The notes below the pieces were generated by a model. It searched no databases. It was not told the DNA's origin and saw only the letters and a program-made list of their open reading frames with translations. Shown in pieces: positions 10,865 to 60,434 of a DNA stretch of 64,000 bases. The stretch comes from an uncultured Eubacteriales bacterium. GTDB lineage: Bacteria; Actinomycetota; Coriobacteriia; Anaerosomatales; CAVRZR01. Every line of letters starts with the position of its first letter. The first letter of the stretch is position 1. Location of the stretch: contig CAYGYT010000001.1 of assembly GCA_964354215.1 (NCBI GenBank), forward strand, positions 75,199 through 139,198. Reading direction: 5' to 3'. Made by a program: the position numbers and the translations under genes.

Positions 10865-10871
10865 CACGCGC

Positions 10872-19609: not shown

Positions 19610-19753
19610 TACCGCCGCCCGTACAGAGCGGCTGGTCGGAACGTGCTGAGCAGGGCCCTGCATGGAGCACCCGAACTGGGTATACATTCCTGTGATTGTT
19701 CTGCACGCCGCAAGTGCTGGCACCTGCGGGACACAAGGGGGAGGGGAGCTGTC

Positions 19754-21058
19754 ATGAAGATCGAGGTCCGAGTCGTCTCGTGGCGAAGGGCTACCGTTGC
19801 CATTCTCGTGCTCTGTCTGCTCACGGGAGTCGCGTGGGTCTCGCTTCCGGCGCACGCTCAGTCTGGCTCGAGGCAGGTGTCTGCTGCGCTCTCACCCTAT
19901 GTCTGGGACGAAGCGTGGTTCGGCGACCGCTACATCAACTACCTCCACACCCCCAAGGGCGTCGCTGTCGATAGTGCGGGCAGAGTCTACGGCTCCAGCG
20001 TAGGGAACAACCGGATCGTGCGGTACGGCGTCGATGGAAGCCGTGAGCTCAGCTGGGGGCAGCGCGGTTCGGCGCTCGGGCAACTCCTGTACCCGCGCGA
20101 CGTTGCGGTCGATGGCGAGGGGAACGTCTACGTCGCCGATACCGCCAACGACCGCGTACAGAAGTACAGCCCCACAGGGAAGCCCATTCTCGTATTCGGC
20201 GCGACCGGCCGCGGTCTCGGAGAGCTCTTGGGGCCTCAGGGTGTTGCCATCGGGCTTCTCGGCGCGGTGTACGTCTCGGACTGGAGCAACGATCGCATCC
20301 AGGTTTACTCGGCGAGCGGCGCGTACGGGTTTCCCATCGGCGGGACCGGAAGCGCGCCGGGTCAGCTCGACGGGCCGAGCGGGCTTGGAACGGACTCTGC
20401 CGGCAACGTGTACGTGGCCGACTACTTCAACCACCGCGTCCAGGTCTTCGCGCCCGGCGGAGAACTCGTGAGGGTGATCGGCAAGAAGGGCACCGCGCTG
20501 GGCGAATTCAACGGCCCGGTGGACGTCGCTGTGGGTCTGGACGGCAGCATGTTCGTGGCCGATAGCGGGAACCGAAGGGTGCAGCGGCTTACCATTCAGG
20601 GGGTCTGGTCCGAGTTCGGACCACAGACAAGCCCCGCGGGCTACGACGACACCAACGTCGCCAGCGTCGCCGTGGATCGTGCGGGCAACGTCTACGTGGC
20701 CAACACGAACGACGACCGGATCGACCGGTTCACGCCGCGGGGCGCCAAGGTGGTCCTGACGAAACCCGTCCTGCTGACGAAGTACCCCCGTGCGGGACGC
20801 TCGTTCGAGGTGAGCGCATCGTCTCGGCCGGTGCACCACTCGATGCGCGATCGTGTCTACTGGGAGTTGAGAAAGACGGGCTCGACGCGCGTCACCATCG
20901 TCAAGCCGACCCGGAACTACCCCGGACGCCGCTGGGTCTACTACAAGAAGTCGTTCAAGCTCCCTGCGGGTTCATACTCGATACGCGCGGTGTCCCCCGC
21001 GGACAGCGAGCACGCGAAGACGACGAGCGCGTATCTCTACTTCACTCTGCGACGCTAG
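19754..21058 (+). CDS. secreted NHL-repeat (six-bladed beta-propeller) protein carrying the shared C-terminal module
   Basis: Trimmed to the ATG at 19754 (RBS GGGGGAGGGGA). Signal peptide ...VAILVLCLLTGVAWVSLPAHAQ. Repeated P.GVAVD..GNVYVAD..N.RV.. units. Confidence 0.85.
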   Translation: MKIEVRVVSWRRATVAILVLCLLTGVAWVSLPAHAQSGSRQVSAALSPYVWDEAWFGDRYINYLHTPKGVAVDSAGRVYGSSVGNNRIVRYGVDGSRELSWGQRGSALGQLLYPRDVAVDGEGNVYVADTANDRVQKYSPTGKPILVFGATGRGLGELLGPQGVAIGLLGAVYVSDWSNDRIQVYSASGAYGFPIGGTGSAPGQLDGPSGLGTDSAGNVYVADYFNHRVQVFAPGGELVRVIGKKGTALGEFNGPVDVAVGLDGSMFVADSGNRRVQRLTIQGVWSEFGPQTSPAGYDDTNVASVAVDRAGNVYVANTNDDRIDRFTPRGAKVVLTKPVLLTKYPRAGRSFEVSASSRPVHHSMRDRVYWELRKTGSTRVTIVKPTRNYPGRRWVYYKKSFKLPAGSYSIRAVSPADSEHAKTTSAYLYFTLRR

Positions 21059-21154: not shown

Positions 21155-21231
21155 GGGCCCGTAGCTCAGTTGGTTAGAGCGCACGGCTGATAACCGTGAG
21201 GTCGATGGTTCGAATCCATCCGGGCCCACCA
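21155..21231 (+). tRNA. tRNA-Ile (anticodon GAT), CCA encoded
   Basis: Cloverleaf read by eye. Acceptor GGGCCCG/CGGGCCC, D-arm GTAGCTCAGTTGGTTAGAGC, anticodon loop CT-GAT-AA, T-arm GGTTCGAATCC, 3' ACCA. Confidence 0.95.
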
Positions 21232-32400: not shown

Positions 32401-35400
32401 GCAGAAGGCGGGACGCGAGGCGCTCGAGCGTCACGGCTTCGTCGGGCGTGATGCCGAGGTCCCTGAGCTCGAGCTGGGTTGCCGTCCACGCGAGGTCGAT
32501 CGCCCGCTGCGCGCTGCGCGCATCGCGGTACTTCTCGACGAGCTGCGTCGCCGTCTCGCGGTCCTCGGCGGCGCCGGTCGTGAACACGAGTCGAGCGCTC
32601 TCGCCCGGGCCCACCTTCACGGTACGCCGCAAGCTGCACGACGGATCGAGGACAGCACCTACGCCACGCCCCAGCTCACCTCCACGGCTGACCGCAAGCG
32701 GATCGGCCACGCCACGAAGCCGTCCGAGGAACGACGCACGGTCGGTCTCGAACGACCACTCGCAGAGCTCGTTCTCGCAGGCGAGTGCGTGGAGGCCCCA
32801 CAGCCGCGCCTCGGATGACGAGCGTGGGCGGCGAGTGAACAAGAGCGCGTTCAAGTCGTCGAGGACCTCGGTTTCGACGAACAGGTTGGAGAACGACTTG
32901 TGCGCCTGATCGGATGCCTGCGAGGTGAACGCGATCTCGAGGTAGGACGTGACCTCGAGGGTACGGCCCTCACGGCCGTGGTTCGTGATGGTCAGGCGGC
33001 GCACCTCGACGTCGTCTTCGGGAGAGACCGCGACCTCCACGCGCGTCTCGAGATTGCCATCGGTGCGCCGGTACTCGGCCTTGTCCGGCGCGAACGTGAC
33101 GAAGTAGTTGTCCGCAGGCGTGGGGCAGGGCTGGTGCGTTGCCGAGAACACGTGGCCGCTCTCGGTGTCTCGGATGTAGAAGAACGTGCCCCAGCAGTCG
33201 CGCGTGACGTCCTCGCGGTAGCGAGTGATCGCCACGTTCTCGAAGCGGCTGTATCCGCCGCCACCGTTGGTGACCATGACCGAGTAGCGGCCGTTTGAGA
33301 GGAAGTGCGTCGAAGGCACCGGTGTGTCCGCGGTCGGGTACGAGCGGGCGACCGGGGGCGGCAGCTCGCGGAGCGAGCGTACGAAGCGAACCTCCTCGAC
33401 GTGCGGGCTCGTGAGCTGCACGTGCCGGGGGACGCGCTCCTGGAGCAGGAGCTCCGCTGAGACCACGAGCGGGTCAGCCCGGAAGCGGTGTCGCATCTTC
33501 TCGCCGGTGAGCTCGTTTCCGAGTGCCACGAAGCTCATGCCCTGGTGGTGGGCAAAGTACGCCTTCACGACGGCACGCGTCTCTCCGGCCGGGATTCGGC
33601 CCGGCGTGTAGTCGATGGCCTCGTAGAAACCCCACCGGCCCTCGCCGCCCTGACGCGTGATGGCCCCCAGGTTGTCGAGCACGGACTGCGCGTCGACGGG
33701 AAGGGCGAGGAGCGACGCGTACGGGGCAACTACCACGTCTTCGGAGAGCCCTCGCTTGAGGCCAAGCCCTGGAACGCCGAAGGCTTGGTACTGGTAGGTG
33801 AGGTCTGCGTCTTTCGCGTTGAAGGCCGACTCGGAGACTCCCCAGGGAACACCGCGGTCCTTGCCGTACTGGATCTGCCGGCGAACCACGGTGCCGTACG
33901 TCTCGTCGAGCAGGGTCCCGTCCCACGAGCGCATCACCAAGAGAGGCATAAGGTACTCGAACATCGACGCGCTCCACGACACGAGCGCGCGGCCGGTTCC
34001 CGTCTGCGTGATCAGGCGCCCAAGCCGGAACCAGTGTTCCTGCGGGGCGTCGCCCTTCGCGATCGCGAGGAAACTCGCAAGCCGGCACTCGCTCGCGAGC
34101 ATGTCGTAGTACGAGCCGTCGAGGTGACCCTCGGCGGTGTTGAATCCGATGCTGAAGAGCGAGCGGTGCTCGTCGAAGAGCACGGTGAAGTCGGTGTGCT
34201 CCCACATCTGGCGCGCGATGTCGGTGTCGATCCTCAGCCGCGAGAGCAGCTCGACGCACTGCGGCCTCGCTGAGCGAATCCCTGCCGCGACGGCGTCGGC
34301 CCATTCCCGCGCGGCTTGCGTGTCCGCATCCTCGGCGCTCCACGACTCGTGCGCTATGAGCTCGAGCGCCTCCAGCACCTCTCCGAGGCCCTCGGCGATA
34401 CCTACGAGGCTCGGCACGAAGCGCGTGAGCGGTTCGAGCGCTGCCAGTCGCGGGTGAGCGGACAGTGCGGGCGGCATCTCGGAAAGCAGGCCCGCCCACG
34501 GTGTGAGGGCATCTATCACCCCGCGGATCGAACCCACATCGTCGATGACGGTCCTGACTGAGGAGACCACCCGTGCTCGAGCGGTGGAGGGGAGGTCGAG
34601 ATCGACAGTGTCATCCGGCGCGTAGACCGACTGGTGGAACGGCCTCTCGGCAGAGGTAGCCGAGAACCCGAGTTCCACGGGCTCGACGGCATGCGCAAGG
34701 CGGTCCGCCATGCCCGAAAGCCGAAGGAGCAGGCCGTTCCACTCACCGAGGGTCTGCGGAGGCTCCTGAAGCTCGAGCTCCCGCTCGAGATCGTCCAAGA
34801 CGTCCATCAGCGGCTGTTGCGGAAGCGAGTTGAGTGAGGCGCGCTCCACCACGACGTCCTCAAGCGCGAGTCTGACGGCATCACGGAGACCCGCCACGAG
34901 CTGCCGGTCGAGGAGCGGGGCCTCCGAGGCCTCGAGCAGGCCCACGCGCAGCACGAGAAGGTGTCCCGCGAGGTTGCCGCTGTCCACAGTCGATATGTAG
35001 TTGGGGCGCAGCGGCTCGAGGCTCTGGATGTCGTACCAGTTGTAGAAGTGGCCATGGAAGCGCTCGAGGCCGGCCATCGAGCTCAGCGTCGACGAGACCC
35101 GCTCGACGAGCCCGTCGATGGTCACGTAGCCCAGATCGTAGGCGTTCAGGTAGGCGAGCAACTGCAGTCCGACGTTCGTGGGCGATGTTCTCCACGCGAC
35201 CTCGCCCTGGGGGTCCTCCTGGAAGTTGTCGGGGACCAGGTAGTGGCCTTCGTCGGTGACGAATGTGTCGAAGTAGCGCCACGTCTTGCGGGCGATCCGC
35301 CGAAGGAGCTGGTGTTGCGGCCCCGTGAGTGGCACGGGCTCGCGCACCTTTATGGGCTGGGAGATTCGCCAGGCGATGAGCGGCGCCAGCGCCCACGCGA

Positions 35401-38374
35401 GTGCGAGAGGAGCGGCGATCAACGCACGAACGGGAATTGGGATTGTCGCGACGGCGAGTAGGGCGACAGACGCGAGCGACGAAGGCCACATCCGATGCAC
35501 GAAACCGGCGCGTGTCGAACCCAGTCGCCGCGCCGCATCATCGGCGGTTTCCCACTCGAGCAGGTGTTTGCGCGAGACGAACGTGCGCCACATTGCGCGT
35601 GCGATCGCGTCCGCCGCTACCCACGAGCGGTAGGGCAGCACACTCAGCTCGAACAGCGAACGTGAGAGGTCTCGGCCGGTATCGCGCGCTATCGCGCGTA
35701 CCGACGAGCCGAGGTGGACCGAGCGCGGGCGCATGAGGATCGCGTCCACGAAGCCGAACACGACTGGGAAGAGCACGAAGAGCGTGGCGAAGAGTGGCCA
35801 CACGAGCGCGGGCGACCCGAGCGCGAGCCAGCCGAGGGTTGCCAGCAGCACGCTTGTCGGCGCGACGAGGCTCCGGCGTAGATTGTCGATGATCTTCCAG
35901 CGGTGCAGAGACGTAAGCGGGTTCGCCGTGAGCCGCCCCTGCGCGTCGCGTGCGCTCAGGAACAGCCACGGGACGGTCTGCCAGTCACCGCGTATCCAGC
36001 GGTGCACGCGCGAGAGATCGGCCGCGAAGCTCGCCGGGTAGTCGTCGAGCACCTCCACGTCCGTTGCGAGCGCAGTCCTCAGAAACGAGCCCTCGATCAA
36101 GTCGTGGGAGAGCATCGAGTCTTCAGGGAATCGCTCTTCGAGCACGCCGAGGAAGACGGCGAGTTCGAAGATGCCCTTCCCCGTGAAACTGCCCTCCCCG
36201 AACACGTCCTGGTAGGTATCAGAAGCAGCGCCGACGTACGGGTCCAAGCCAGTGGCTCCCGAGTACATCCAGGCGAAGCGGCTCTTGCGCGAGCCGGGCA
36301 GCGTCATGCTCACGCGCGGCTGGACGAGCCCGTAGCCGCCCTCCACGCGCAGCTCCCCGTGACGCCACTGAGCCCGGTTCATGGGGTGTGCGATCGTCGA
36401 GACGAGCTTGCGAGCGGCATCTCTCGGCAACTGCGTGTCTGCATCCAGCGTGACCACGAACGTGACGTCTCGCCGAAAACCGATCTCGCCCATCTTGTGC
36501 GTGAACGCGGAGCCGTCCTCGCCGTGAAGTGCTCGCGCAAGCTCGAGGAGCGCGCCTCGTTTGCGTTCCCAGCCCATCCAGAGGCCCTCGGACTCGTTGT
36601 AGGTGCGACCCCGGATGAACAGGTGGAACGGCCGTACGCCGTGCTCGACCTCGTAGCGGTCGTTGAGCTGGCTCACAGCGCGCACGGCCGCCTCGACGAT
36701 TTCGCCGTCGTCGGGACGCTCTGGCTCCGGCGCCCCCCGCAAGTCGCCGAGGAGCGCGTACGCGATGTTGGGATCGCGGTTGGCGAGGTATGAGATCTCA
36801 AGGTTGTCGACGACCGCCTGCGTCGAGGGCACCGAGGACAGCAGCGCCGGAACGACCACAAGCGTGCGGTTCGACTCCGCGACCGGGTGTGTGAAGTCCA
36901 GCTTGAGGAGCGAACGGGGCGGGTAGATGCCGGCGAGCGTACGGTTCGTGACCGTGAGCGCTACCTCGGAAAGCGGGAAGATCGCCAGAAGTGCGACGAT
37001 CGTCGTACCGAGAGCGGGGCCTCCCGTGAGCGCGACCCACCAGGTAGCGAGTCCGACGAGGAGTGCCGTCAGGCCGCCGAGCAGCGTCCCGTAGATCAGG
37101 CCGCGGTGGCGCAGAGGCCCGCGGTATGCCCATTCGCGCCGGGTGCGGCGATAACCGACGGTAGGCTCGAGCTCGTAGCGACCCGCGCTCACCAGGTAGT
37201 ACGCAACGTGTCCTCGGACGAGATCGCTCGGGTCACGTGCGAGTGCATCGCTCGCGAATCCGAGGACCGCCTCGACGAGTTCGGTCTCAGTGAATGAGCA
37301 GCGCCTCGCCATCTGCTCGATCGCGTGCCGGCATCGGTCCCGGCTCGCGAAGTCCATCCGCGGGTACACGCCGGCGGGATCCTCGCAAAGCGCCTGCTCG
37401 ACCACGCTCACCGTCTCGAAGAACGCCTTCCACTCGAAGGCGTCGAAGAACCGGATGGTCGTGATCGAGTTGGCGATTGACACCTGGTTGGCGGCTTGTT
37501 CCTGTTGCTGAGCGTGTACGTGTTCCTCGAGCACGATGCCGAGCGAGGATACCCTGCCTTGCAGCCAGGCATTTACGGGCTCGCCGCCGGCTTCCATGCC
37601 TCCGAGGCGCTGGGACAGGCGTCCGAAGAACGGTGGGGTCTGATCGACGGACGCCGTCTCGAGCTCCTGTATCAGGCCTGGCAGCTCCTCCGGAGCGTTC
37701 TGAACGGTAAGTAGGACGCGCTCTGCCCACTCGTCCGCGGAAAGCTCGGCCTCGTGCGACAGGACTACGCGGCGCGACAGCCGCCGCAGGTTCTCGACGA
37801 CCGCGATCCTGAGCATGATCGGGACGGCCCATAACTCGCCGATGGAGAGAGGAGAGACATCCTGGTACGCCTCGACGAAGCGCAGGAGGTAGGGCTCGTC
37901 GACGCGCGCGTCGGTGTGGACAAGCAGCTCAACCGCAGCCTCGAACACCCGTGGGTACCCTGCGTAGGGGCCGCTTGTCAGCCGGGGCAACTCGATTCCG
38001 TAGCGCGCCGGCAGATCTTCGCGCACGGCGAGGAGCTGCTCCTCGATCAGGTAGTAGTTGTCGAGCAGCCACTCGCTTGCCGGTGAGAGCGAGAGCTGCG
38101 CGCGTGTAGCCGCCGAGAGAACGATGTTGTCGTGTGCAAGACCCGCAGCGGCAGCGTCAGCGAGTGCGATGAGCGGTGTGGTGCGGATAGGTGGCTGCGT
38201 GACCGGTTCTTGGAGCGAGGCGAGCGCGCGCGCCTCGTCCGCCAGCCGGTCTGCGTTGAGCAGGTCGCCGCGGAAGGGAGCGTCATCTGTCATGACCTGG
38301 GGCGGCTCGACGGTCGCTCGCGGTCTGCGCTGCTCGGTTTCCCCCACCCGTTCCTCCAGTCGCGCACCGGGCAT
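29477..38374 (-). CDS. cyclic beta-1,2-glucan synthase-like giant multidomain protein (GT84 glycosyltransferase + (alpha/alpha)6 glucan-processing/cyclization-like region + GH94 phosphorylase-like C-terminus)
   Basis: Single uninterrupted frame. N-terminal ...FRGDLLNADRLADEARALA as in NdvB/ChvB-type proteins. TM segments. GT84-type motifs MGWERKRG and VTLDADTQLPRDAA. Central motifs SPTNVGLQLLA, STVDSGNLAGHL, WSASMFEYLMP and YQAFGVPGLGLKRG. GH94-type motifs RDQLQD, HWWQPHSGRGVRT, EGGDWNDGMN and GGQYTHAAVW. Start uncertain: ATG at 38374 or 38293. The track's extension to 38854 runs into the divergent gene and lower-GC DNA. Confidence 0.88.
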   Translation of the reverse strand: MPGARLEERVGETEQRRPRATVEPPQVMTDDAPFRGDLLNADRLADEARALASLQEPVTQPPIRTTPLIALADAAAAGLAHDNIVLSAATRAQLSLSPASEWLLDNYYLIEEQLLAVREDLPARYGIELPRLTSGPYAGYPRVFEAAVELLVHTDARVDEPYLLRFVEAYQDVSPLSIGELWAVPIMLRIAVVENLRRLSRRVVLSHEAELSADEWAERVLLTVQNAPEELPGLIQELETASVDQTPPFFGRLSQRLGGMEAGGEPVNAWLQGRVSSLGIVLEEHVHAQQQEQAANQVSIANSITTIRFFDAFEWKAFFETVSVVEQALCEDPAGVYPRMDFASRDRCRHAIEQMARRCSFTETELVEAVLGFASDALARDPSDLVRGHVAYYLVSAGRYELEPTVGYRRTRREWAYRGPLRHRGLIYGTLLGGLTALLVGLATWWVALTGGPALGTTIVALLAIFPLSEVALTVTNRTLAGIYPPRSLLKLDFTHPVAESNRTLVVVPALLSSVPSTQAVVDNLEISYLANRDPNIAYALLGDLRGAPEPERPDDGEIVEAAVRAVSQLNDRYEVEHGVRPFHLFIRGRTYNESEGLWMGWERKRGALLELARALHGEDGSAFTHKMGEIGFRRDVTFVVTLDADTQLPRDAARKLVSTIAHPMNRAQWRHGELRVEGGYGLVQPRVSMTLPGSRKSRFAWMYSGATGLDPYVGAASDTYQDVFGEGSFTGKGIFELAVFLGVLEERFPEDSMLSHDLIEGSFLRTALATDVEVLDDYPASFAADLSRVHRWIRGDWQTVPWLFLSARDAQGRLTANPLTSLHRWKIIDNLRRSLVAPTSVLLATLGWLALGSPALVWPLFATLFVLFPVVFGFVDAILMRPRSVHLGSSVRAIARDTGRDLSRSLFELSVLPYRSWVAADAIARAMWRTFVSRKHLLEWETADDAARRLGSTRAGFVHRMWPSSLASVALLAVATIPIPVRALIAAPLALAWALAPLIAWRISQPIKVREPVPLTGPQHQLLRRIARKTWRYFDTFVTDEGHYLVPDNFQEDPQGEVAWRTSPTNVGLQLLAYLNAYDLGYVTIDGLVERVSSTLSSMAGLERFHGHFYNWYDIQSLEPLRPNYISTVDSGNLAGHLLVLRVGLLEASEAPLLDRQLVAGLRDAVRLALEDVVVERASLNSLPQQPLMDVLDDLERELELQEPPQTLGEWNGLLLRLSGMADRLAHAVEPVELGFSATSAERPFHQSVYAPDDTVDLDLPSTARARVVSSVRTVIDDVGSIRGVIDALTPWAGLLSEMPPALSAHPRLAALEPLTRFVPSLVGIAEGLGEVLEALELIAHESWSAEDADTQAAREWADAVAAGIRSARPQCVELLSRLRIDTDIARQMWEHTDFTVLFDEHRSLFSIGFNTAEGHLDGSYYDMLASECRLASFLAIAKGDAPQEHWFRLGRLITQTGTGRALVSWSASMFEYLMPLLVMRSWDGTLLDETYGTVVRRQIQYGKDRGVPWGVSESAFNAKDADLTYQYQAFGVPGLGLKRGLSEDVVVAPYASLLALPVDAQSVLDNLGAITRQGGEGRWGFYEAIDYTPGRIPAGETRAVVKAYFAHHQGMSFVALGNELTGEKMRHRFRADPLVVSAELLLQERVPRHVQLTSPHVEEVRFVRSLRELPPPVARSYPTADTPVPSTHFLSNGRYSVMVTNGGGGYSRFENVAITRYREDVTRDCWGTFFYIRDTESGHVFSATHQPCPTPADNYFVTFAPDKAEYRRTDGNLETRVEVAVSPEDDVEVRRLTITNHGREGRTLEVTSYLEIAFTSQASDQAHKSFSNLFVETEVLDDLNALLFTRRPRSSSEARLWGLHALACENELCEWSFETDRASFLGRLRGVADPLAVSRGGELGRGVGAVLDPSCSLRRTVKVGPGESARLVFTTGAAEDRETATQLVEKYRDARSAQRAIDLAWTATQLELRDLGITPDEAVTLERLASRLLLTDPNSRLKVKTPVENGLQMSGLWSIGISGDNPILLVRVEELEHAPLVRQAILAHQYWRHKGLVSDLVILNTRPTGYADELDDRLRLLVRTGHALQLVDKPGGIYLRRADQMHPDVLNLLLSVARATLDGDGGSIELQLSRRAARPAVPGELVPTRSAEPWPTSPFQRPALTLDNGFGGFDTATGDYVIVLEGDETTPAPWVNVMATAEFGCLVSEAGVGCTWALNSHENRITTWNNDAVSDGSGEALYIRDEETGEFWSPTPLPVRDEEPYVIRHGKGVTRFEHASHGLSQEIDWFVAVDAPVRIVRLRLTNTGARERHLSVTQFVEWVLGDSRSRAQQLVVTWFDAESTILTAHNHFNLDFPGRSAFLACDAELHSYTASRTEFVGRNGRPGDPAAMYRKGLGAQSGRFLDNCGALMTKVDIAPGESAEVSFLLGQTATLEESRDAVARLRQHGAIDKALADARAFWTDLLGSVQVQSPDAALDIMVNGNALYQALACRIWGRTGTYQSSGAFGFRDQLQDVLALLLVRPDLVREQIVEASRHQFEAGDVLHWWQPHSGRGVRTHISDDRHWLPLVVAEYVTATGDTSVLDERTAYIEGPELPPEQEDLYLQPAVSEQAATVFEHCMVALGRFGIGSHGLPLMEGGDWNDGMNRVGHEGRGESVWLGWFLAYVASRFASVCDLIGETARAQHYRAWSAGLAQAVELEGWDGGWYRRAYFDDGTPLGSHTSEECRIDAIAQSWAVISGFGNPERTRAAIDAVEEKLVRREAGLVALLTPPFDRMSHDPGYIKGYVPGVRENGGQYTHAAVWLILAYLLKGDGDEAVSLFDLVNPISHALTAEAAARYVVEPYVIAADVYAAEPHVGRGGWTWYTGSAAWFYRVALNHLYGLRIEARDGTRFLVMDPCIPKDWPAYEITYRSGATRYHIRVENPRGVNRGVARVELDGVVLAEPVVPLSEEPGAHQVIVTLLGG

Positions 38375-38615
38375 GTCTCCGGCGCGTGCTCTCGCGGCTG
38401 CGTCGTGCGCGTTGGTTGGCGCCTTGCTACTTCCAAGGACAGGCACCGGTAGCGCATCTATAGTATCCCCCGAGCGTGCGTCGGCAGGAGAGCGAGTTTG
38501 CACGAGAAATACCCATGGGGGTATCATCGCGTAGGTGCACACGCGTTGTCGCACGCATGCGGCGTACATCGAGTACCTCGGACCGAGATCGCTTTGGCCC
38601 CGTGAGGAGTGTTTG

Positions 38616-39332
38616 ATGAAGAGCAAATGGATCGTGTGGGTGGCCGTGGCGGCCGTTCTCGTGGGCGTCGCGTATCTCGCGCTGAAACCCGCCTCGGTAG
38701 CCCAGGGCGTCGTGGACGTCGACAGCGGCAAGCTCGAAGAGCTGCTCGCGGCGTCCCCCTCGCCGAGGATCGTTGACGTCCGTACTCCCGGGGAGTTCCA
38801 GGCGGGGCACCTCAAGGACGCCGAGAACGTACCCGTCGACCAGGTCGAGTCCATTGCGCAGTCGTGGGACCGGTCTCAGCCGCTCGTCGTCTACTGCGCC
38901 ACTGGTGCACGGTCGGCGACGGCGGTTCAACAGTTGCAGAGCATGGGGTTCAAGACCATCTACCACTTCTCGCAGGGCCTCGTCGCCTGGCAGGGTGCGC
39001 TCGATACGGGTGATGAGGGGCCGGTCGCGCAGGCACCCGCCGTCAAGACCAACAGCAAGCCGGTGATGTATGAGTTCTTCACCGACTGGTGACCAAGCTG
39101 CAAGGAGATGAAGCCTGTGGTCGACAGGCTAGAGAAGGCGTACGAGGGCAAGGTGGAGTTCCGGCGGATCAACGTCGACACCGACAAGCAGGGCGCCGCA
39201 CTGATGCAGCAGTTCAATGCGCAGTACGTGCCGACGTTCGTGTTCATCAACGCCGACGGGTCGACGGCTGACCTAAAGGTGGGAGCGCTCAAGAAGGATC
39301 AGCTCGTGGCAGCGCTCGACAGACTCAAGTAG
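38616..39332 (+). CDS. membrane-anchored or secreted rhodanese-thioredoxin fusion, predicted selenoprotein (in-frame TGA at 39090-39092 read as Sec, giving W-U-P-S-C)
   Basis: ATG at 38616 with GAGGAG 7 nt upstream. N-terminal TM WIVWVAVAAVLVGVAYLAL. Rhodanese domain with active-site loop CATGARS. ORFs 38535..39092 and 39108..39332 are in the same frame. The read-through product aligns with the thioredoxin fold on both sides of the TGA (cis-Pro YVPTFVF, KVGALKKDQL). Confidence 0.7.
39112..39130 (+). promoter_or_regulatory. candidate bacterial SECIS hairpin for the TGA at 39090
   Basis: AGCCUGU-GGUCG-ACAGGCU: 7-bp stem and 5-nt G/U-containing loop. The loop starts 26 nt after the UGA. Confidence 0.5.
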
Positions 39333-42136: not shown

Positions 42137-43891
42137 TCAGCCTCGCTGCTCGAGCAGTTCGCACATGGCGTGAAGAGCGCTGCCCATGCCGAGCGGGGCC
42201 CACTCGGCAAACGACGCTGAGCGCTCGAGGACCTGTTCGGCCGTTGCCGACATGCCGGACGCTCTCACACCGTGCGCCGCGAGACTCAACGCAGCGAGGG
42301 CGGCAAGATGCGGGCCGCTGGGGGTTGGGCCGTCGTGCCGCTCCCGCGGCCTGAGAGGAAGCTCGGTGGATGCTGGTGTCATGAACCACACCCCGTCAGA
42401 GGCGAAGGTCGCCTCTGCGGCGGCCAGGATGCGCTCTGCTGCACCGAGGAACTCTCGCTCGTCAGCTGTCTCGAACGCGCGGACTGCCGCGAGGGCCAAG
42501 GCAGCCGCGTCGTCGAGAACCTGCGGGGCCGGTTGATGCGTGTCGCCCACGATCCGCCGCACCTGGCCGTCGGCGCCCGCCGCCTCAGCCAGAAGGAACC
42601 GCACGAGCTCTACGCCCCGCTTTGTGATTGCGTCATCGCCGACGGCGGCGCCGGCGTCCATCAGGCCGATGGCGGCAAGCGCGTTCCAGGACACGATCAC
42701 CTTGCCGTCGCGGTCGGGCTGGGGCCGCCGCTGCCGCCGTGAGAAGAGCCGGGACAACAGCGCGTTCACGCGTGGGTCGTCGTCCAGATTCTCTCGCGTC
42801 AGGATGACGCTCCCCTCCCAGTTGCCTTCGCGCGATACGCCGAGATGCTCGCGAGCGAGGGCGAGTTCCTCGGCATCGAGCAGCGACTCGAGCTCCTCCC
42901 AGCCCCAGACGTAGGTCGCGCCCTCTTCCCCTTGCGTGTCGGCCGAGAGCGACGAGGCGTAGCCGCCGGATGGCATGAGCAGATCGCGCTCGAGGAATGC
43001 CGCGGTGTCGCCCATGGCGCGTCGCCACGCATCACGCGGTCGTCGGATGTGCAGCCCTGCGAGGGTCGAGAGCAGCTGCGCGTTGTCGTAGAGCATCTTC
43101 TCGAAGTGCGGCACGAGCCACCGGTCGTCGACGGAGTAGCGCGCGATGCCGCCGCCCGCCTGGTCGTAGATGCCACCGCCGACGATGCCGACTGCCTCCG
43201 CCTCGACCAGCGCGAGAGCCCGTTCGTCGCCGGTGATTCGGTGGTACGCGAGCAGGAACTGGGCGACCGTCGGTTGCGGGAACTTGGGCGCACTGCCGAA
43301 GCCGCCGTTGACCGGGTCTGCCTCGTCCAGCACCGCCGAGAAGGCCAGATCCACAACTCCACGTGTGGCGGCCCCGGGTTTCGGTGGGGCGAACATCACT
43401 CGGAGGTAGTCCATGGCGTCTTCGGCAGAACGCGCGACCACGTCGGGCTGGAGCGAGAACGAGGTGCTGATGCGCTCGAGGATGCTTTGAAACGACGGCA
43501 CTCCAGGGTGCGATTCGGGCGGGAAGTACGTGCCGCCGAAGACCGGTCGAAGCTCGGGGGTAAGAATGACGCTCATCGGCCAGCCTCCGTGTCCGGTGGC
43601 CGCGACTACGTACGCCAGGTAGAGCTCGTCGACGTCGGGCCGCACCTCGCGGTCGACCTTCACCGAAACGTAGCGGTCGTTGAGAAGGCCCGCGGTCGCC
43701 GGATCGCGGAACGACTCGCGCTGCATGACATGGCACCAGTGGCACGACGCGTAGCCGACGGAGAGGAAGATCGGGCGCTCGGTCTCGCGCGCGTGCGCGA
43801 AGGCCTCTTCGCCCCACGGATACCAATCGACCGGATCGTCCGCGTGCTGGCGGAGATACGGAGAGGATGCACGTGCGAGGCGATTCGGCAT
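42137..43891 (-). CDS. thioredoxin-domain (DUF255, YyaL-like) protein with C-terminal (alpha/alpha)6-barrel-like region
   Basis: Trimmed to the ATG at 43891 (MPNRLARASSPYLRQHADDPVDWYPWGEEAF...). Motif VGYASCHWCHVM is typical of DUF255. Confidence 0.85.
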   Translation of the reverse strand: MPNRLARASSPYLRQHADDPVDWYPWGEEAFAHARETERPIFLSVGYASCHWCHVMQRESFRDPATAGLLNDRYVSVKVDREVRPDVDELYLAYVVAATGHGGWPMSVILTPELRPVFGGTYFPPESHPGVPSFQSILERISTSFSLQPDVVARSAEDAMDYLRVMFAPPKPGAATRGVVDLAFSAVLDEADPVNGGFGSAPKFPQPTVAQFLLAYHRITGDERALALVEAEAVGIVGGGIYDQAGGGIARYSVDDRWLVPHFEKMLYDNAQLLSTLAGLHIRRPRDAWRRAMGDTAAFLERDLLMPSGGYASSLSADTQGEEGATYVWGWEELESLLDAEELALAREHLGVSREGNWEGSVILTRENLDDDPRVNALLSRLFSRRQRRPQPDRDGKVIVSWNALAAIGLMDAGAAVGDDAITKRGVELVRFLLAEAAGADGQVRRIVGDTHQPAPQVLDDAAALALAAVRAFETADEREFLGAAERILAAAEATFASDGVWFMTPASTELPLRPRERHDGPTPSGPHLAALAALSLAAHGVRASGMSATAEQVLERSASFAEWAPLGMGSALHAMCELLEQRG

Positions 43892-44054
43892 GGTGGCTCC
43901 TGCCTGGGTGGTCGCGCCAACAGGGCGTTTGCCTGGTTCTTTCCCCGCAGGCAGGCGGTTGTGGCGCCCGGGAGACTGCGTCCGCGGGCAGGTCGTCACC
44001 TCGCTCGCGGACTCGCCGAGAACGGCACGACGGATGCTATACTCTCCCGCGCAC

Positions 44055-44130
44055 GGGGACGTAGCTCAGTTGGGAGAGCGCGGGCTTTGCAAGCCTGAGG
44101 TCGAGGGTTCGAGCCCCTTCGTCTCCACCA
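44055..44130 (+). tRNA. tRNA-Ala (anticodon TGC), CCA encoded
   Basis: Acceptor GGGGACG/CGTCTCC with the G3:U70 Ala identity pair, anticodon loop TT-TGC-AA, T-arm GGTTCGAGCCC, 3' ACCA. Confidence 0.95.
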
Positions 44131-56393: not shown

Positions 56394-57077
56394 ATGGAGA
56401 CGACCGCCAACCGCAGAGCGATGAAGCCGAAGCGCGTCGTGCACGAGTACTCGGTCGGCGAGGAAGTCGCGAACAGCATCATCCACGGCATCGGCGTGCT
56501 GCTCAGCATAGTTGGGCTCACGATCCTGGTTGTCTTCGGCTCCATGTCGCATGATGGCTGGAAACTCGCGAGTGGTATCGTCTACGGCGTTTCGCTCGTG
56601 CTCGAGTACACCGCGTCGACGCTCTACCACAGCCTGCCGTGGGAGAAGGCGAAACACGTCTTCAAGATCTTCGACCACTGCGGCATCTACCTGCTGATCG
56701 CCGGCACCTACACGCCGTTCACCCTCGTCACACTGCGTGATCAGGGTGGCTGGAAGCTCTTCGTGCTCGTGTGGCTGATCGCCGTCGTCGGCATCTCGGT
56801 CGAGTCGTTCTGGGTGTATCGACCGCGCTGGGTGTCCGCGCTCACCTACCTCGCCATGGGCTGGCTCGTCGTGCTCGCAATCAAGCCGCTCACCGCCGCG
56901 CTTCCGGCGGCGGGTCTGTGGCTGCTCGTCGCAGGTGGTCTGGCGTACACGCTCGGCACGATCTTCTACGTGCTCAAGACGGTGCCGTACATGCATGCGG
57001 TGTGGCACCTGTTCGTACTCGCAGGAAGCGTGTGCCACTTCCTCGCGGTCGTGTTGTTCGTCATGCTGCCCGTCTAG
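56394..57077 (+). CDS. hemolysin III / PAQR family membrane protein
   Basis: Trimmed to the ATG at 56394. 7 TMs, with motifs EEVANSIIHGIG, YHS, DHCGIYLLIAGTYTPF and HLFVLAGS. Confidence 0.9.
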   Translation: METTANRRAMKPKRVVHEYSVGEEVANSIIHGIGVLLSIVGLTILVVFGSMSHDGWKLASGIVYGVSLVLEYTASTLYHSLPWEKAKHVFKIFDHCGIYLLIAGTYTPFTLVTLRDQGGWKLFVLVWLIAVVGISVESFWVYRPRWVSALTYLAMGWLVVLAIKPLTAALPAAGLWLLVAGGLAYTLGTIFYVLKTVPYMHAVWHLFVLAGSVCHFLAVVLFVMLPV

Positions 57078-57096
57078 GCCCTTGGGAGGACCACCG

Positions 57097-57276
57097 ATGA
57101 GAAGCGTGTTCACGGCCGTGGTGCTCGTCGTCGTGGTGGTGGCACTCGTCTGGGGGGGTCTGCACGTGTTCATACGGGGAATCAATCCGGAGCAGCAGAC
57201 GCCCGAGGGTCATTTCGAAAGCGCGTGTTGGGCGTGTCACTTCGTCAGCGCGAACGCGAAGATCGTCGAGGAGTAG
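57097..57276 (+). CDS. 59-aa membrane-anchored protein with a single CXXCH motif (possible mini c-type cytochrome)
   Basis: ATG at 57097 with GGGAGGA 6 nt upstream. TM AVVLVVVVVALVWGGLHVF followed by ...GHFESACWACHFVSANAKIVEE. Confidence 0.5.
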   Translation: MRSVFTAVVLVVVVVALVWGGLHVFIRGINPEQQTPEGHFESACWACHFVSANAKIVEE

Positions 57277-57289
57277 AACGGGTACTGGG

Positions 57290-58048
57290 CTAGTCGGTGG
57301 ACGGCTTGTCGAGTTCGCCGCTGTTGCTGTAGCCGCGTTGCTCCCAGTACCCCTTGAACGACGTGTCGTTCGACACCTCGATCTCCTTGACCCACTTGAT
57401 CCACTTGTAGCCCCAGCGGTCTTCGGCGACGAGCTGGAAGGGGTAGCCGCGCTCGGGAGGCAGAACGACGCCGTTCATCTTCGACGCGAGGAGGATGTCC
57501 TGTGCGCGCACGTACGCCAGAGGGAGGGACGTCGAGTACCCGTCTACCGCGCGGAAGATGACGACCTTCGCGTCCGCGGCTGCGCCCGCCTGTTCGAGCA
57601 GGTCGACCACGCGCACGCCTTGCCACCAGATGTCGACGCTCCAGCCCTCGACGCAGTTCAATCGCACGACCTTGTCGTAGTTCTGGCGGGCCAGCACTTG
57701 GTCGTAGGTGAGTTTCAGCGGCGTCTGCACGCGCCCGCTGACCTCGAGCCGGTAGGCCTTCGGGTCCACTGACTGCGGCCCCTTGATCGAGTTCTCGGAG
57801 AAGTCCTCTATCGACGAAAGCTTGGCGCCCTGATACTGCCGGACCTCACTCGGATAGAGTCGCTTCGACGGGGTTTGGTCTCTCGGCCCCGTGCCGGTGT
57901 CGTCTACTGCGGAGCAGGCCGCGAGTGCTGCCAGCCCGACCGCGAGCGCGATCGCGCACAGCAGCCGGAGAGCCGTCCGAGTCCGGTCGACCACGGAGTG
58001 CTGCGCGGCCTCGTCACGCTCAAACTGGGGCTGCGGCATCGTTGGCAT
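57290..58048 (-). CDS. molybdopterin-dependent oxidoreductase (sulfite-oxidase/YedY-MsrP fold), predicted lipoprotein
   Basis: Trimmed to the ATG at 58048 (TGATG overlap with the upstream gene). Lipobox LAALAAC. Motifs RLNCVEGWS, ...LASKMNGVVLPPERGYPFQLV...WGYKWIKWVKEIEV. Confidence 0.85.
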   Translation of the reverse strand: MPTMPQPQFERDEAAQHSVVDRTRTALRLLCAIALAVGLAALAACSAVDDTGTGPRDQTPSKRLYPSEVRQYQGAKLSSIEDFSENSIKGPQSVDPKAYRLEVSGRVQTPLKLTYDQVLARQNYDKVVRLNCVEGWSVDIWWQGVRVVDLLEQAGAAADAKVVIFRAVDGYSTSLPLAYVRAQDILLASKMNGVVLPPERGYPFQLVAEDRWGYKWIKWVKEIEVSNDTSFKGYWEQRGYSNSGELDKPSTD

Positions 58049-59472
58049 CAGCGCTCCTCGATCTCGATTGGTGCCAGCGAGCCGTCGACGCCCACTCGCA
58101 CGATGCGATGGTTCCCCGTATCGGCGATGACCAGACCGCCTGATGTCGAAGCCGACACTCCTCCCGGCTCGCGAAGCTCGCCGTCGCGCCCCGCCGCCCC
58201 AGGCCACGGCTCGCACGTGCGCGTGGCCGGGTCGATGCGCTTGATGCGGTCGTTGTACGTGTCGGCGACGGCGAGGAAACCGTCGTGCCAGGCAACGTCC
58301 TGGCAGTGCTGGAGCAGGACCTGGTCGGCAACGCCATCGCGATCGCCGAAGTCGAAGAGCCCGGTGCCGACGATGGTGCGCAACGCGTCGTCCGCGTCGA
58401 CGCGGCGAACCGCTGAGGACTCGCAGTCCGTGAAGACGACGCCTCCCGCCGACGCGCACAGGCCGGTCGGCTGCGCGAGCGCGGCTCCGCGGGCGGGCCC
58501 GTCGAGGACCGCTTCGCCACCGGAACCGGCCACGAGTTCCAGAACGCCCGTGTCAAGCGAGATCGAGAAGAGCTGGTGGGAGCCGGCCATAGAGAGCAGG
58601 AGCCGCGTCCCGTCGAGCAGCAGGCCCCACGGGGATCGGATCGGCGTGGCCGCAGCGAGTGAGCCCGGACGGATGGAGTCGTGCGCAATGGCTCCGGTCC
58701 CCGCGACACGCTCTCGCGCGCCGGAAGCCGTGTCGAGACGCCATACCGCGTGACCCGCGCGGTCCGCGACCCAGACGGCGCCTCCCGTCGAGTCGACCGC
58801 AACGCCCTGCGGCTCCAGGAATCCCGTCCACTCGCGCCGCACCCGACCGGACAGCCCGCTCTCACCGAGCTCGATCTCGACGAGTCGCCCGTGACCGGCG
58901 TCCGCGACGTACAGCCGCCCCTCGGATTCGATGACACGCGAGGGATACCTCAGAAGCCCGCCCTCGGGCTTCTCGACGCGAAGGAACGGCTCGTCTCCCC
59001 TCACGAGCGTGCCGCGCCTCTCGGCTTCGGCAGTGACGCGCTCGATAATCTCCGCCACGGCCTCGGTGTCGAACTCGCCCGACTGGATCCCGATGAGATA
59101 GCCTTCCGGGTCGATCAGCGCGATCGTCGGCCACGCCTCGACGGCGTAGCTCTTCCAGATCCGGAACTGCCGGTCGTTCACGATCGCGTGGGTGACGCCC
59201 AGCCGGTCGGCCGCCGAGGCGATCCGCTCGGTTCGGCGTTCGGTCGAGAACTTCCCGGCGTGCACTCCAACAACGCTGAGCACGTCTGAGAACCGTTCGT
59301 GCAGCTCCCGGACACGCGGGAGCACGTGCATGCAGTTGATTCAACCGTACGTCCAGAAGTCGAGCAGGGTCACGCGTCCGCCGAGGGCACGCATGTCGAG
59401 CGGGGCGGCTGTGTTGACCCAGTCGAGGCCGGGCGGGAAGTCGGGCGCATGGACGTTTCGCATCGATTCCAT
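58048..59472 (-). CDS. thioredoxin-like (redoxin) domain + NHL-repeat protein, predicted selenoprotein (in-frame TGA at 59343-59341 read as Sec, giving G-U-I-N-C)
   Basis: The tail of minus ORF 59341..60351 (MESMRNVHAPDFPPGLDWVNTAAPLDMRALGGRVTLLDFWTYG) is in frame with ORF 58048..59331 (INC-MHVLPRVRELHERF...AWPTIALIDPEG...). Together they rebuild one redoxin fold with TGA at the first CxxC position. ATG at 59472 with GGAG 8 nt upstream. NHL repeats fill the C-terminal two-thirds. Confidence 0.7.
59304..59323 (-). promoter_or_regulatory. candidate bacterial SECIS hairpin for the TGA at 59343-59341
   Basis: GCUCCCG-CGUGUC-CGGGAGC: perfect 7-bp stem with a 6-nt G/U-containing loop. The loop starts 24 nt after the UGA. 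Confidence 0.5.
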
Positions 59473-59553
59473 GTGGCGCACTCCGCTTCGCGGAGACGGC
59501 CGGCACGTCTCGGGGTATGTTCCCCAGCGACGGCATGTACGAGAGGACCGAGT

Positions 59554-60255
59554 ATGAGCACGCGCTACGAAGTCGAGTTCGTCACGCAGGGCGGCTGCGG
59601 GACCGACGTAGCCTGGTTCCGCTTCGGCAAGCCGGACGGCTACACGTTCACGCCGGGCCAGTACCTCACGCTTACGCTCGCCACTGCCGAAGGGGAGCAG
59701 ACCAAGCCGTTCACGCACTCCGAGGCGCCCCGCGACCCCTACTTGGAGATCACAACCCGTCTGTCCGGCTCGGCCTTCAAGAACGCGCTCGGTGCGCTCG
59801 AGTCCGGGGAGCGTGTGCACGTGGCAGGACCGGCCGGTCGCCTCCGGCTGCCGGCAGGCGCCGAGCGGATCGCCTTTCTTGTCGGCGGAGTGGGGATCAC
59901 TCCCGCCCGCAGCATGTTGCGCGATGCGTGGCAGCGAGGCTTCGTCTGGAGCGACGCCGTCGTGTTCTACGGCAATCGCGACCCGTCGTGCATGCCGTAC
60001 GCCGATGAACTCGCCGAGATGGCTTCTTCCGAGGTGAGGGTGGTGAACGTGGTCGAGCGCGCCGATGAATCCTGGACCGGGTACCGCGGATTCGTGACCG
60101 CCGACATTGTGCGAGAGAACGTGGACCCCCATGACGGCAGGGTCTTCTGTGTATCGGGTCCCCCGGTCATGGTGGAGGCCATGGAGCGCGTGCTGGACGA
60201 GCTTGGCGTGGAGTCTGACAGGCGGCTCGTCGAGCGCTTCGGCGCGGCACCCTAG
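59554..60255 (+). CDS. ferredoxin-NADP reductase-like FAD/NAD(P)-binding oxidoreductase
   Basis: Trimmed to the ATG at 59554 (RBS GAGAGGA). FAD-binding FR-type region (PGQYLTLTL, KPFTHSE), NAD-binding FLVGGVGITP, C-terminal CVSGPPVMV. Confidence 0.85.
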   Translation: MSTRYEVEFVTQGGCGTDVAWFRFGKPDGYTFTPGQYLTLTLATAEGEQTKPFTHSEAPRDPYLEITTRLSGSAFKNALGALESGERVHVAGPAGRLRLPAGAERIAFLVGGVGITPARSMLRDAWQRGFVWSDAVVFYGNRDPSCMPYADELAEMASSEVRVVNVVERADESWTGYRGFVTADIVRENVDPHDGRVFCVSGPPVMVEAMERVLDELGVESDRRLVERFGAAP

Positions 60256-60434
60256 CGGCAGTTCGCACCACCACTCGTCGTATCGGCGGACCGTTCGACC
60301 GCGCGAGAGGCCCGCTCGATTCCCCCCGCAGACGGCATGCCGCTGTGGCACATCACTTGCGTGCGCTAGAATCTTCGTGACGGTTCAGCGGCCAACGGCC
60401 GAGCTTCAACGGCCGAGGGTCAGCGGCCGCTGAT

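Follow-up and report, generated by a model that had tools for sequence, protein, structure and literature searches.

A predicted selenocysteine-containing thioredoxin-NHL protein related to NHLRC2 and SOQ1 in an uncultured member of the Coriobacteriia

The described proteins closest to the one considered here are human NHLRC2 and the lumenal domains of plant SOQ1 (Arabidopsis), in which a thioredoxin-like domain carrying the motif CC(I/V)NC precedes an NHL-repeat propeller. No activity was seen for human NHLRC2 in the classical insulin reduction assay, and most bacterial NHLRC2 homologues are without its C-terminal domain (PMC6107167). For SOQ1, a methionine sulfoxide reductase (Msr) activity has been assigned to the C-terminal domain. 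If the thioredoxin-like domain is taken alone, its closest solved stand-alone relative is the C-terminal thioredoxin domain of DipZ from Mycobacterium tuberculosis (2hyx), a membrane-anchored, extracytoplasmic, DsbD-like reductant carrier that has the cysteine motif SCINC and no propeller. Selenocysteine (Sec) is also known in bacterial thioredoxin folds: a 2026 inventory counts 119 bacterial selenoprotein families and subfamilies, and the thioredoxin-fold proteins with a UxxC motif listed there are thioredoxin, a Prx-like thiol:disulfide oxidoreductase, the thiol:disulfide interchange protein, thiol-disulfide isomerase-like cd02966 proteins and the redoxin family PF08534 (PMC13188914). The same source defines a bacterial SECIS (bSECIS) element by a loop of 3-9 nt, an upper stem of 4-16 bp, a distance of 16-37 nt between UGA and loop, a minimum free energy (MFE) of -7.5 kcal/mol or lower, and a G within the first two loop positions, followed by U or by G (PMC13188914).

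In this study, we have analysed a stretch of 64,000 nucleotides (the 64-kb window) from an uncultured bacterium of the Coriobacteriia, and we describe a gene on its minus strand that would unite these two themes. Based on our results, we infer with a probability of roughly 0.9 that positions 58048..59472 form a single gene of 474 codons, in which the in-frame UGA at codon 44 is decoded as selenocysteine by the standard mechanism and a hairpin directly downstream serves as the SECIS element. The product would be a thioredoxin-like plus NHL-propeller protein with a G-U-I-N-C centre, that is, a bacterial homologue of NHLRC2 and SOQ1 without their C-terminal domain. A preliminary description of this DNA had already proposed one gene, selenocysteine at the first CxxC position and a SECIS hairpin, and our comparison of the sequence with its relatives supports that core.

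The frame runs on the minus strand from the ATG at 59472-59470 to the gene's own TGA stop at 58050-58048, and it is broken solely by the TGA at 59343-59341, which lies within the thioredoxin-like domain (...GRVTLLDFWTYG-TGA-INCMHVLPRVRELHERF... around codon 44). The continuous frame and all coordinates given for it in the preliminary description were borne out to the base. A GGAG at 59484-59481 precedes the start with a spacer of 8 nt (59470..59484), and the closest relative, L003, starts at the equivalent site (MQQMRGIHAPDF). Two open reading frames of the kind that gene callers annotate share this region. One, of 427 amino acids, begins at the ATG at 59331, four codons past the TGA as had been reported. 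The other, of 336 amino acids (59341..60351), had been said to make sense in its last 43 codons alone, and we agree: these codons, from the ATG at 59472, are the true N-terminus, and the remainder (59473..60351, minus strand), which we considered and rejected as a gene, is a non-coding shadow frame antisense to a plus-strand flavoprotein gene at 59554..60255.

When the frame is translated across the TGA, the product has the predicted order of domains, with a thioredoxin-like domain (Thioredoxin_8 / TlpA-DipZ-like in Pfam) at residues 32-125 (59098..59379), which spans codon 44, and an NHL-repeat beta-propeller at about residues 175-462 (58087..58950; NHL E 2e-23; propeller match to 6g7w at 176-462). 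The similarity to SOQ1 (7djj, E 2.1e-69, residues 9-459) and to human NHLRC2 (6gc1, E 1.8e-60, residues 6-461) is full-length, and both alignments begin at residues 6-9, upstream of the TGA. Codon 44 is aligned with the SOQ1 segment ...FWTYCCINCMHVLP..., with Sec at the second Cys of CCINC, which is C90 in human NHLRC2 numbering (PMC6107167). The surroundings of the centre are common to all three proteins (...LDFWTY-x-[C/U]-INC-MHVLP...), and the difference lies in the centre itself, where Sec stands for the second Cys and Gly for the first. The protein ends about 10 residues past the propeller; it is thus without the beta-stranded, Cys-pair-bearing C-terminal domain of the mammalian and plant proteins, to which the SOQ1 Msr activity was assigned, and it has neither a HAD domain nor a membrane anchor. 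DipZ is matched at residues 9-150 (E 1.8e-23) and shares the x-C-I-N-C type of motif, whereas the present protein has a propeller and a predicted Sec. No signal peptide is visible in it. None of the NCBIfam models reaches its cut-off; ResA scores best, with 42.9 bits where 170 would be needed. A look-up of protein clusters returned neither a name nor an accession for the protein.

The strongest support for a sense codon comes from comparison with relatives. Homologues occur in 417 GTDB species, and we compared the 80 nearest species-representative genomes. TGA stands at exactly the codon 44 position (FWTYG-TGA-INC) in 72 of the 80 loci and a cysteine codon, TGC or TGT, in the other 8, while TGC codon 47 (59332..59334), the resolving Cys of U-x-x-C, is invariant (80/80). 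The TGA forms are found in three phyla (Coriobacteriia and other Actinomycetota, Gemmatimonadota, and Chloroflexota) and include two complete chromosomes, OY969565.1 (L014) and OY969691.1 (L022). Codon 44 alternates with Cys codons and with nothing else, FWTYG-U-INC being set against FWTYG-C-INC or FWTYC-C-INC, so that in these alignments it is a conserved sense position. In the cysteine homologues, the counterpart of the TGA is the first Cys of CxxC, as the preliminary description had placed it (UxxC); the motif given there for these homologues, DFWTY-C-x-x-C, was right as to the aligned position and inexact in its wording, the actual sequences being DFWTY-G-C-I-N-C or DFWTY-C-C-I-N-C. Gly directly precedes Sec in 72/72 TGA forms and precedes Cys in many Cys forms as well (Cys cluster representatives: GCINC 13, GCVNC 3, CCINC 35), and by sequence the TGA forms belong to a G-[U/C]-INC subfamily.

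The 43 codons upstream of the TGA, which had been taken as coding, behave as such. The N-terminal 43 amino acids are kept in frame in the TGA-form loci, and variation is concentrated at third codon positions on both sides: the entropy at positions 1/2/3 is 0.46/0.17/1.09 bits over the 14 codons before the TGA and 0.59/0.28/1.00 bits over the 14 after it.

The second line of evidence is the hairpin at 59323..59304 on the minus strand, which we found as it had been reported: GCUCCCG (59323-59317), loop CGUGUC (59316-59311) and CGGGAGC (59310-59304), with the stem 17 nt and the loop 24 nt past the UGA. It agrees with the bSECIS model in every respect (7-bp stem, 6-nt loop, GU at loop positions 2-3, 24 nt, -13.4 kcal/mol). 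Folded by itself, the hairpin has z = -4.0; single-sequence folds of 60-67 nt give z values of -0.5 to -1.3, below significance, a 67-nt stretch has a different MFE fold (z = -0.5), and a competing fold wins when more 3' sequence is included. Because these longer folds lack significance, the case for more than chance rests on comparative evidence. In 62 TGA sequences, 85.3% of the cells in helix columns 21-28/33-40 are paired, and slid controls do not exceed 58.7%; five of the eight helix pairs show compensatory changes, which 0/500 shuffles match; columns 24-37, for example, pair as CG 41 times, UA 12, UG 5 and GC 3. RNAalifold recovers the same helix independently. In the Chloroflexia the hairpin is offset by 3 nt (87.5% paired). 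The 8 Cys forms, on the other hand, are 39% paired at the helix, equal to slid controls, and one of them, L036, has this unpaired type at 74% protein identity to Sec forms. The pattern across these alignments is that of a hairpin kept by selection in the TGA forms and dispensable in the Cys forms. Compared with the consensus for bacterial SECIS elements (the bSECISearch model, of the E. coli fdhF type), the peculiarity here is the existence of three clade-specific versions: the loop reads CGUGUN in the Coriobacteriia, Gemmatimonadota and Anaerolineae have AGUU, and the shifted hairpin of the Chloroflexia has GUC or GUG. With Rfam at gathering thresholds, the window returned two tRNAs and nothing else, and a permissive scan of 59200-59480 gave no match to a SECIS family. 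Elsewhere in the window, another candidate gene combines a W-U-P-S-C motif with a hairpin whose loop lies 26 nt after the UGA.

Three other explanations have to be weighed. The TGA could be a true stop, leaving a 43-residue peptide and a separate 427-residue protein that begins at Met48 (MHVLP...). Gene callers give exactly such a product in the window, where an ATG does lie four codons past the TGA, and among the 120 top database homologues, of which 89 are cut at or just past the motif (60 of these start with MHVLP) and the other 31 carry FW[TS]xG-C-INC and are full length; a broader representative search gave 28 motif-truncated clusters and 58 full-length Cys clusters and was dominated by giant NHL-repeat proteins. 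The preliminary description had regarded homologues starting at MHVLP as speaking against a selenoprotein. Database entries do start there, yet the codon corresponding to the ATG at 59331 is ATG in 31 and GTG in 2 of the 72 TGA loci and is no start codon in the other 39, and since the upstream DNA is also conserved in frame with coding-type substitutions, we consider these starts an annotation artefact. Moreover, the TGA falls inside the Pfam domain and inside the alignments to SOQ1 and NHLRC2, a 427-residue protein would be without the first thioredoxin strands and the U/CxxC centre, which no other feature of the family surpasses in conservation, and a stop gives no role to a covarying hairpin restricted to TGA forms. 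We regard termination at codon 44 as highly improbable. What speaks for a pseudogene, or for a sequencing or assembly error in a TGC or TGT codon, is that one base change is enough to give TGA and that the sequence was assembled from a metagenome. But two read sets, assembled independently, gave the identical protein-coding sequence, TGA occupies this codon in 72 species genomes that were each assembled independently, there are no further disruptions, and the coding signature holds before and after the TGA. The earlier judgement that error or decay is unlikely therefore stands, and we would put the chance as close to negligible.

The remaining alternative, that the UGA is translated as Trp, Cys or Gly through near-cognate or suppressor reading, or that the codon is reassigned in this lineage, draws on the outcome of the search for the selenocysteine machinery. 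selA, selB, selD and tRNA-Sec were not found in the 64-kb window by ARAGORN, crude motif regexes and Pfam scans, the last of which covered essentially all plausible genes of the window, nor did ARAGORN find tRNA-Sec in the DNA flanking the 80 loci. It is also true that the comparison shows the UGA as a sense position and cannot chemically identify the residue inserted. Against this, 13 of the 32 Pfam-supported genes of the window end in TGA, the selenoprotein gene among them, which implies that the codon is not reassigned. An exchange with Cys codons alone at a redox CxxC is the signature of a Sec/Cys pair, the hairpin that fits the bSECIS model occurs solely with TGA, and the same pattern recurs in three phyla. 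Insertion of an amino acid other than selenocysteine thus appears very unlikely, and we prefer a single selenoprotein gene.

The genes next to this one offer a possible context. Downstream on the same strand lies a gene (57290..58048) for a 252-amino-acid protein with a sulfite-oxidase-family molybdenum-binding domain (PF00174, E 5.5e-36) and the lipoprotein signal LAALAAC, so that an exported lipoprotein is predicted. Its ATG overlaps the selenoprotein stop (TGATG), and a promoter/terminator scan of 57000-59800, otherwise uninformative, found no terminator between the two genes. From its sequence, the Mo-binding domain is the secure part of its assignment; its scores lie far below the NCBIfam equivalog cut-offs for SorA (78.6 bits/600, 3.8e-22) and MsrP (68.4/207, 6.2e-19) and do not place it in the MsrP/YedY or SorA families. 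The Mo gene follows the selenoprotein gene in eight loci (L003, L008, L011, L012, L017, L019, L020 and L022), always with a lipobox, and the overlap is present in 6 of these 8. The preliminary description had called the selenoprotein coupled to a Mo-oxidoreductase. Gene order and stop/start overlap agree with that in one actinobacterial subclade; direct redox coupling is unsupported, since the Mo lipoprotein is predicted to be exported and no signal peptide is visible in the Trx-NHL protein. On the other side, the divergent plus-strand gene at 59554..60255 encodes a 233-amino-acid FAD/NAD(P)-binding flavoprotein of the ferredoxin-reductase type (NAD_binding_1, FAD_binding_6), whose best matches are reductase subunits, every one below cut-off; it is conserved, in the same divergent arrangement, in L003, L008, L011, L012, L020-L023 and L025. 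Clustering of neighbour genes over all loci gave clade-specific synteny only, with no partner conserved across phyla. In the actinobacterial clade, the neighbourhood is compatible with a shared theme of oxidative damage or sulfur oxyanions.

Taken with the established bacterial mechanism, these observations suggest how the protein could be made and work. SelB-GTP-Sec-tRNA(Sec) would bind the apical part of the hairpin (loop CGUGUC) while the ribosome reaches the UGA, and selenocysteine would be inserted there to give the G-U-I-N-C centre. If the structures of NHLRC2 and SOQ1 are a guide, Sec44 and Cys47 would be placed at the N-terminal end of helix alpha-1, facing the cleft with the propeller, and may cycle between selenol/thiol and selenenylsulfide while reducing a substrate held by the propeller, possibly a protein disulfide, a sulfenate or methionine sulfoxide. 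In the actinobacterial clade, the gene may be translationally coupled to that of an exported MsrP/SorA-like molybdoenzyme, next to a flavin-reductase-like gene.

The protein resembles the known bacterial thioredoxin-fold UxxC selenoproteins in having Sec at the N-terminal CxxC position, many Cys homologues, and a bSECIS directly downstream of the UGA, inside the coding sequence. It is set apart from the listed families, going by the family descriptions, through its NHL propeller and its kinship to NHLRC2: none of the 119 is described as NHL-bearing or NHLRC2-like, the 'redoxin family' (HEU0032618.1) and 'thiol-disulfide isomerase-like' (MGB1650493.1) entries being compared by description only (PMC13188914). 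Sec forms are not mentioned in the NHLRC2 (PMC6107167) or SOQ1 papers, and in the literature that we searched, no pertinent paper brings NHL, NHLRC2 or SOQ1 together with selenoproteins or selenocysteine. The Trx-NHL selenoprotein is apparently a family not yet described. Whether all parts hold together, namely undescribed and mis-truncated Sec orthologues of NHLRC2/SOQ1, repeated Sec/Cys exchange, and a Mo/flavoprotein module, we judge somewhat better than an even chance.

There are practical consequences for annotation. This protein would be cut at its active site in at least 72 species-representative genomes, as it would be in 89 of the 120 database proteins nearest to it. The cut entries go under the names 'hypothetical', 'alkyl hydroperoxide reductase', 'YvrE' or 'YncE' and would be corrected by a family model that carries a Sec flag. 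For lineages from soil and groundwater (Gemmatimonadota, Chloroflexia, uncultured Coriobacteriia), the finding would also add to what is known of their use of selenium; the two reviews that we searched for these lineages mention none of them. Furthermore, with its three versions over a single conserved helix of the protein, the hairpin would represent a natural series in which to follow the co-evolution of SECIS and SelB.

If the joint reading is true, NHLRC2, a human disease gene, and SOQ1 of plants have Sec orthologues that are widely distributed among Gemmatimonadota, Chloroflexota and Coriobacteriia-like Actinomycetota and that public annotation truncates systematically. The Mo lipoprotein and flavoprotein module, through its conservation in one actinobacterial clade, would hint at a role in the chemistry of methionine sulfoxide or of sulfur oxyanions, which fits the Msr activity reported for SOQ1. 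Natural exchange of Sec and Cys is an accepted sign of a catalytic redox cysteine. The presence of Sec at the equivalent of C90 therefore argues for redox catalysis by that residue of NHLRC2, and repeated exchange at the second Cys of CCINC would mark it as the catalytic redox nucleophile, giving a candidate nucleophile to a family, that of NHLRC2 and SOQ1, whose biochemical activity has been disputed.

The gene studied runs on the minus strand as a single frame of 474 codons, from the ATG at 59472-59470 to the TGA at 58050-58048, with a GGAG (59484-59481) 8 nt upstream of the ATG. Its sole interruption is the TGA at 59343-59341 (codon 44; ...GRVTLLDFWTYG-TGA-INCMHVLPRVRELHERF...). A mechanical ORF list divides the gene between a 427-aa ORF (ATG 59331) and part of a 336-aa ORF (59341..60351), of which the last 43 codons alone belong to the gene, the remainder being an antisense shadow of a plus-strand flavoprotein gene (59554..60255). 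In the read-through protein, the Pfam domain Thioredoxin_8 covers residues 32-125, spanning codon 44, and is followed by NHL repeats. The preliminary description had read the same frame, interrupting TGA, split ORFs and domain order, with only the last 43 codons of the 336-aa ORF making sense, and we confirmed each of these points from the sequence, the ORF list and Pfam.

The proposal that TGA occupies the first redox position of a UxxC motif also holds in the relatives. Among the 80 best family loci from species-representative genomes, this very codon is TGA in 72 (FWTYG-TGA-[I/V]NC) and TGC or TGT in 8 (Cys forms). The hosts of the TGA forms are Coriobacteriia and other Actinomycetota, Gemmatimonadota and Chloroflexota (Chloroflexia, Anaerolineae, Dehalococcoidia), and a conserved in-frame N-terminal piece precedes the TGA in the 72 loci (...APEFxxGLDWINT...LRGKVVLLDFWTYG). 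At the protein level, 31 of the 120 best database matches are full length with FW[TS]xG-C-INC; the remaining 89 are truncated at the motif or just past it, and 60 of them start with MHVLP. The putative internal start (equivalent to ATG 59331) is not a start codon in 39 of the 72 TGA loci, the remainder having ATG (31) or GTG (2). Entropy at codon positions 1, 2 and 3 is 0.46, 0.17 and 1.09 bits over the 14 codons before the TGA, and 0.59, 0.28 and 1.00 bits over the 14 after it; judged by these values, the coding-type variability upstream of the TGA matches that downstream. Reassignment of UGA is ruled out, as TGA terminates 13 of the 32 Pfam-supported genes in the window, including the gene studied.

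A perfect hairpin with its loop 24 nt past the UGA had also been described, and it is present (GCUCCCG-CGUGUC-CGGGAGC, 59323-59304, minus strand). The bacterial SECIS model has an apical loop of 3-9 nt, an upper stem of 4-16 bp, a G at loop position 1 or 2, mostly followed by G or U, a UGA-to-loop distance of 16-37 nt and an MFE of <= -7.5 kcal/mol (PMC13188914); the window hairpin agrees with it in every respect (loop C-G-U-G-U-C of 6 nt, 7 bp, 24 nt, -13.4 kcal/mol). Folded alone it gives a z of -4.0, and single-sequence folding of longer stretches gave no significance, with a competing fold in one context, so that the case is decided by comparing relatives. When 62 TGA sequences are aligned without gaps (column 1 being the U of UGA), helix columns 21-28/33-40 are 85.3% paired, as against 36.5-58.7% with the partners slid, and none of 500 shuffles matched the observed helix values. 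Compensatory double changes occur in 5 of the 8 helix pairs (columns 24-37: CG 41, UA 12, UG 5, GC 3), and several combine an amino-acid change on one arm with a matching change on the other, as in ...CUU CCG...CGG AAG (Leu/Lys) versus ...CUC CCG...CGG GAG (Leu/Glu), or AUC...GAU (Ile/Asp), also read from the alignment. RNAalifold, given no hint, returned the same helix as the sole consensus structure. In Chloroflexia the hairpin is displaced by 3 nt (GCCGGUG-GUC-CACCGGC); its pairing reaches 87.5%, the slid controls do not exceed 44.6%, and one UA/CG compensation is seen. The loop varies with clade (CGUGUN, AGUU, GUC/GUG) and contains G-U in all. In the 8 Cys forms, the helix is 39% paired, equal to the slid controls, and was matched by 213 of 500 shuffles. 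Like all the evidence presented here, these comparisons are computational; they show that UGA-44 is translated and selectively maintained, and that it goes together with a hairpin under structural constraint.

Two TGA forms among the window's closest relatives, loci L003 (6130-6189) and L020 (6121-6180), show natural variation in the hairpin: the outer stem pairs are kept, one base is bulged on the 3' arm (a C in L003, an A in L020) and the loop is a 5-nt CGUGU. The region between the UGA and the stem also contains sequence complementary to the apical part of the hairpin. In the Gemmatimonadota type, columns 6-12 pair with 27-33 (alignment A2; GCAGUUG-CAACUGC, the I-N-C codons), and in the Coriobacteriia type columns 14-21 pair with 26-33, that is, window 59330-59323 with 59318-59311 (CGCGUGUN with UGCACGUG, G-U pairs included). 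These competing pairings, whose register differs by clade, could reflect chance or an alternative conformation.

A search of solved structures with the read-through protein matched three entries, the SOQ1 lumenal domains (7djj; residues 9-459, E 2.1e-69), human NHLRC2 (6gc1; residues 6-461, E 1.8e-60) and the DipZ thioredoxin domain (2hyx; residues 9-150, E 1.8e-23). The segment ...LDFWTYG-U-INCMHVLP... aligns with ...LDFWTYC-C-INCMHVLP... of SOQ1, which puts Sec in place of the second Cys of CCINC, the N-terminal Cys of CxxC; at the first motif position Gly stands where SOQ1 and NHLRC2 have Cys. In human NHLRC2, which was inactive in an insulin assay, CCINC is residues 89-93 and in the crystal structure sits where helix alpha-1 begins, in a cleft toward the propeller (PMC6107167). 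Unlike NHLRC2 and SOQ1, the window protein has no C-terminal domain, a domain absent from most bacterial homologues (PMC6107167). For the SOQ1 lumenal domains, electron transfer from the thioredoxin-like to the C-terminal domain and methionine sulfoxide reduction in LCNP have been reported (bioRxiv 10.1101/2024.11.01.621559).

A 2026 inventory holds 119 prokaryotic selenoprotein families or subfamilies, many of them thioredoxin-fold UxxC proteins, and none is described as NHL-repeat or NHLRC2-like; the family may already be listed under another name, for instance within the generic 'redoxin family' or 'thiol-disulfide isomerase-like' entries. NHL is unmentioned in the Sargasso Sea, GOS, ISME 2016, deep-Sep and BSepDB papers, and we found no paper in the searchable literature that links selenocysteine to NHLRC2 or SOQ1. 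The Trx-NHL family is not covered by any NCBIfam model, and the truncated proteins carry generic public names.

The stop codon of the gene overlaps the ATG (TGATG) of a 252-aa Mo-binding protein (58048..57290, minus strand; PF00174, E 5.5e-36), whose MsrP-like and SorA-like scores lie far below the cut-offs. A Mo gene likewise follows in L003, L008, L011, L012, L017, L019 (a Cys form), L020 and L022, overlapping the upstream stop in 6 of these 8 loci as in the window (ATGA, GTGA or TGATG). The divergent 233-aa ferredoxin-reductase-type flavoprotein (59554..60255, plus strand) has the same placement in nine actinobacterial loci. Neither gene adjoins the family gene in the Gemmatimonadota and Chloroflexota loci, and the synteny is clade-specific only. 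The suggested coupling to a Mo-oxidoreductase is thus real in terms of operon organisation, within one clade. Direct electron transfer is unsupported, since every Mo-protein copy has an N-terminal lipobox (e.g. LAALAAC, MLGGCS; several with RR) and is predicted to be an exported lipoprotein, whereas the Trx-NHL protein lacks a signal peptide. Convergent with the Mo gene lies a 59-aa predicted membrane-anchored peptide (57097-57276, plus strand) with C-W-A-C-H (CxxCH, haem-c-type). L003, the closest relative, has it at the same position with 71% identity, and L025 has a weakly similar peptide; it may serve the Mo enzyme as a small cytochrome partner.

Elsewhere in the window, on the plus strand, are gyrA at the start (384-2963), a HAD-family hydrolase (10698-11534; plant SOQ1 carries this domain as a fusion, here it lies 48 kb away), another NHL-repeat protein, lacking a Trx domain (19610-21058), and a 707-aa ORF with no Pfam match (21490-23613). 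The minus strand has a 3132-codon open frame of coding-type composition (29477-38875) and a DUF255/Thioredox_DsbH protein (42137-44065). tRNA-Ile(GAU) and tRNA-Ala(UGC) (21155-21231 and 44055-44130) lie 23 kb apart, outside any rRNA operon.

The 64-kb window contains no sel genes or tRNA-Sec, and no tRNA-Sec was found in the flanks of the 80 best loci. A second candidate selenoprotein, a rhodanese (PF00581) fused to thioredoxin (38616-39332, plus strand) and presumably the first candidate of the preliminary description, has an in-frame TGA at 39090-39092 (...EFFTDW-U-PSC...; W-U-P-S-C) and a hairpin at 39112-39130 (AGCCUGU-GGUCG-ACAGGCU) whose loop, GGUCG, lies 26 nt beyond its UGA. Its presence in the same window lends indirect support to Sec decoding by this organism. 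By the established bacterial pathway, SelB-GTP-Sec-tRNA(Sec) on the hairpin would deliver Sec at the UGA, and this decoding mechanism is entirely standard. From the fold and the motif, Sec44 and Cys47 would form a selenenylsulfide/selenol-thiol couple acting on a propeller-presented substrate.

The Cys forms are interspersed with Sec forms, so that several Sec/Cys exchanges have taken place: L036, from Chloroflexia, is 74% identical to Sec forms, L019 has Sec forms as its nearest neighbours, and a small clade consists of three Longimicrobiales-type Cys forms. Among the nearest family members, clustering at 50% identity gave 58 full-length Cys clusters (CCINC 35, GCINC 13, others) and 28 motif-truncated ones, so that Sec forms are a sizeable minority in the family as a whole and make up most of the members close to the gene studied.
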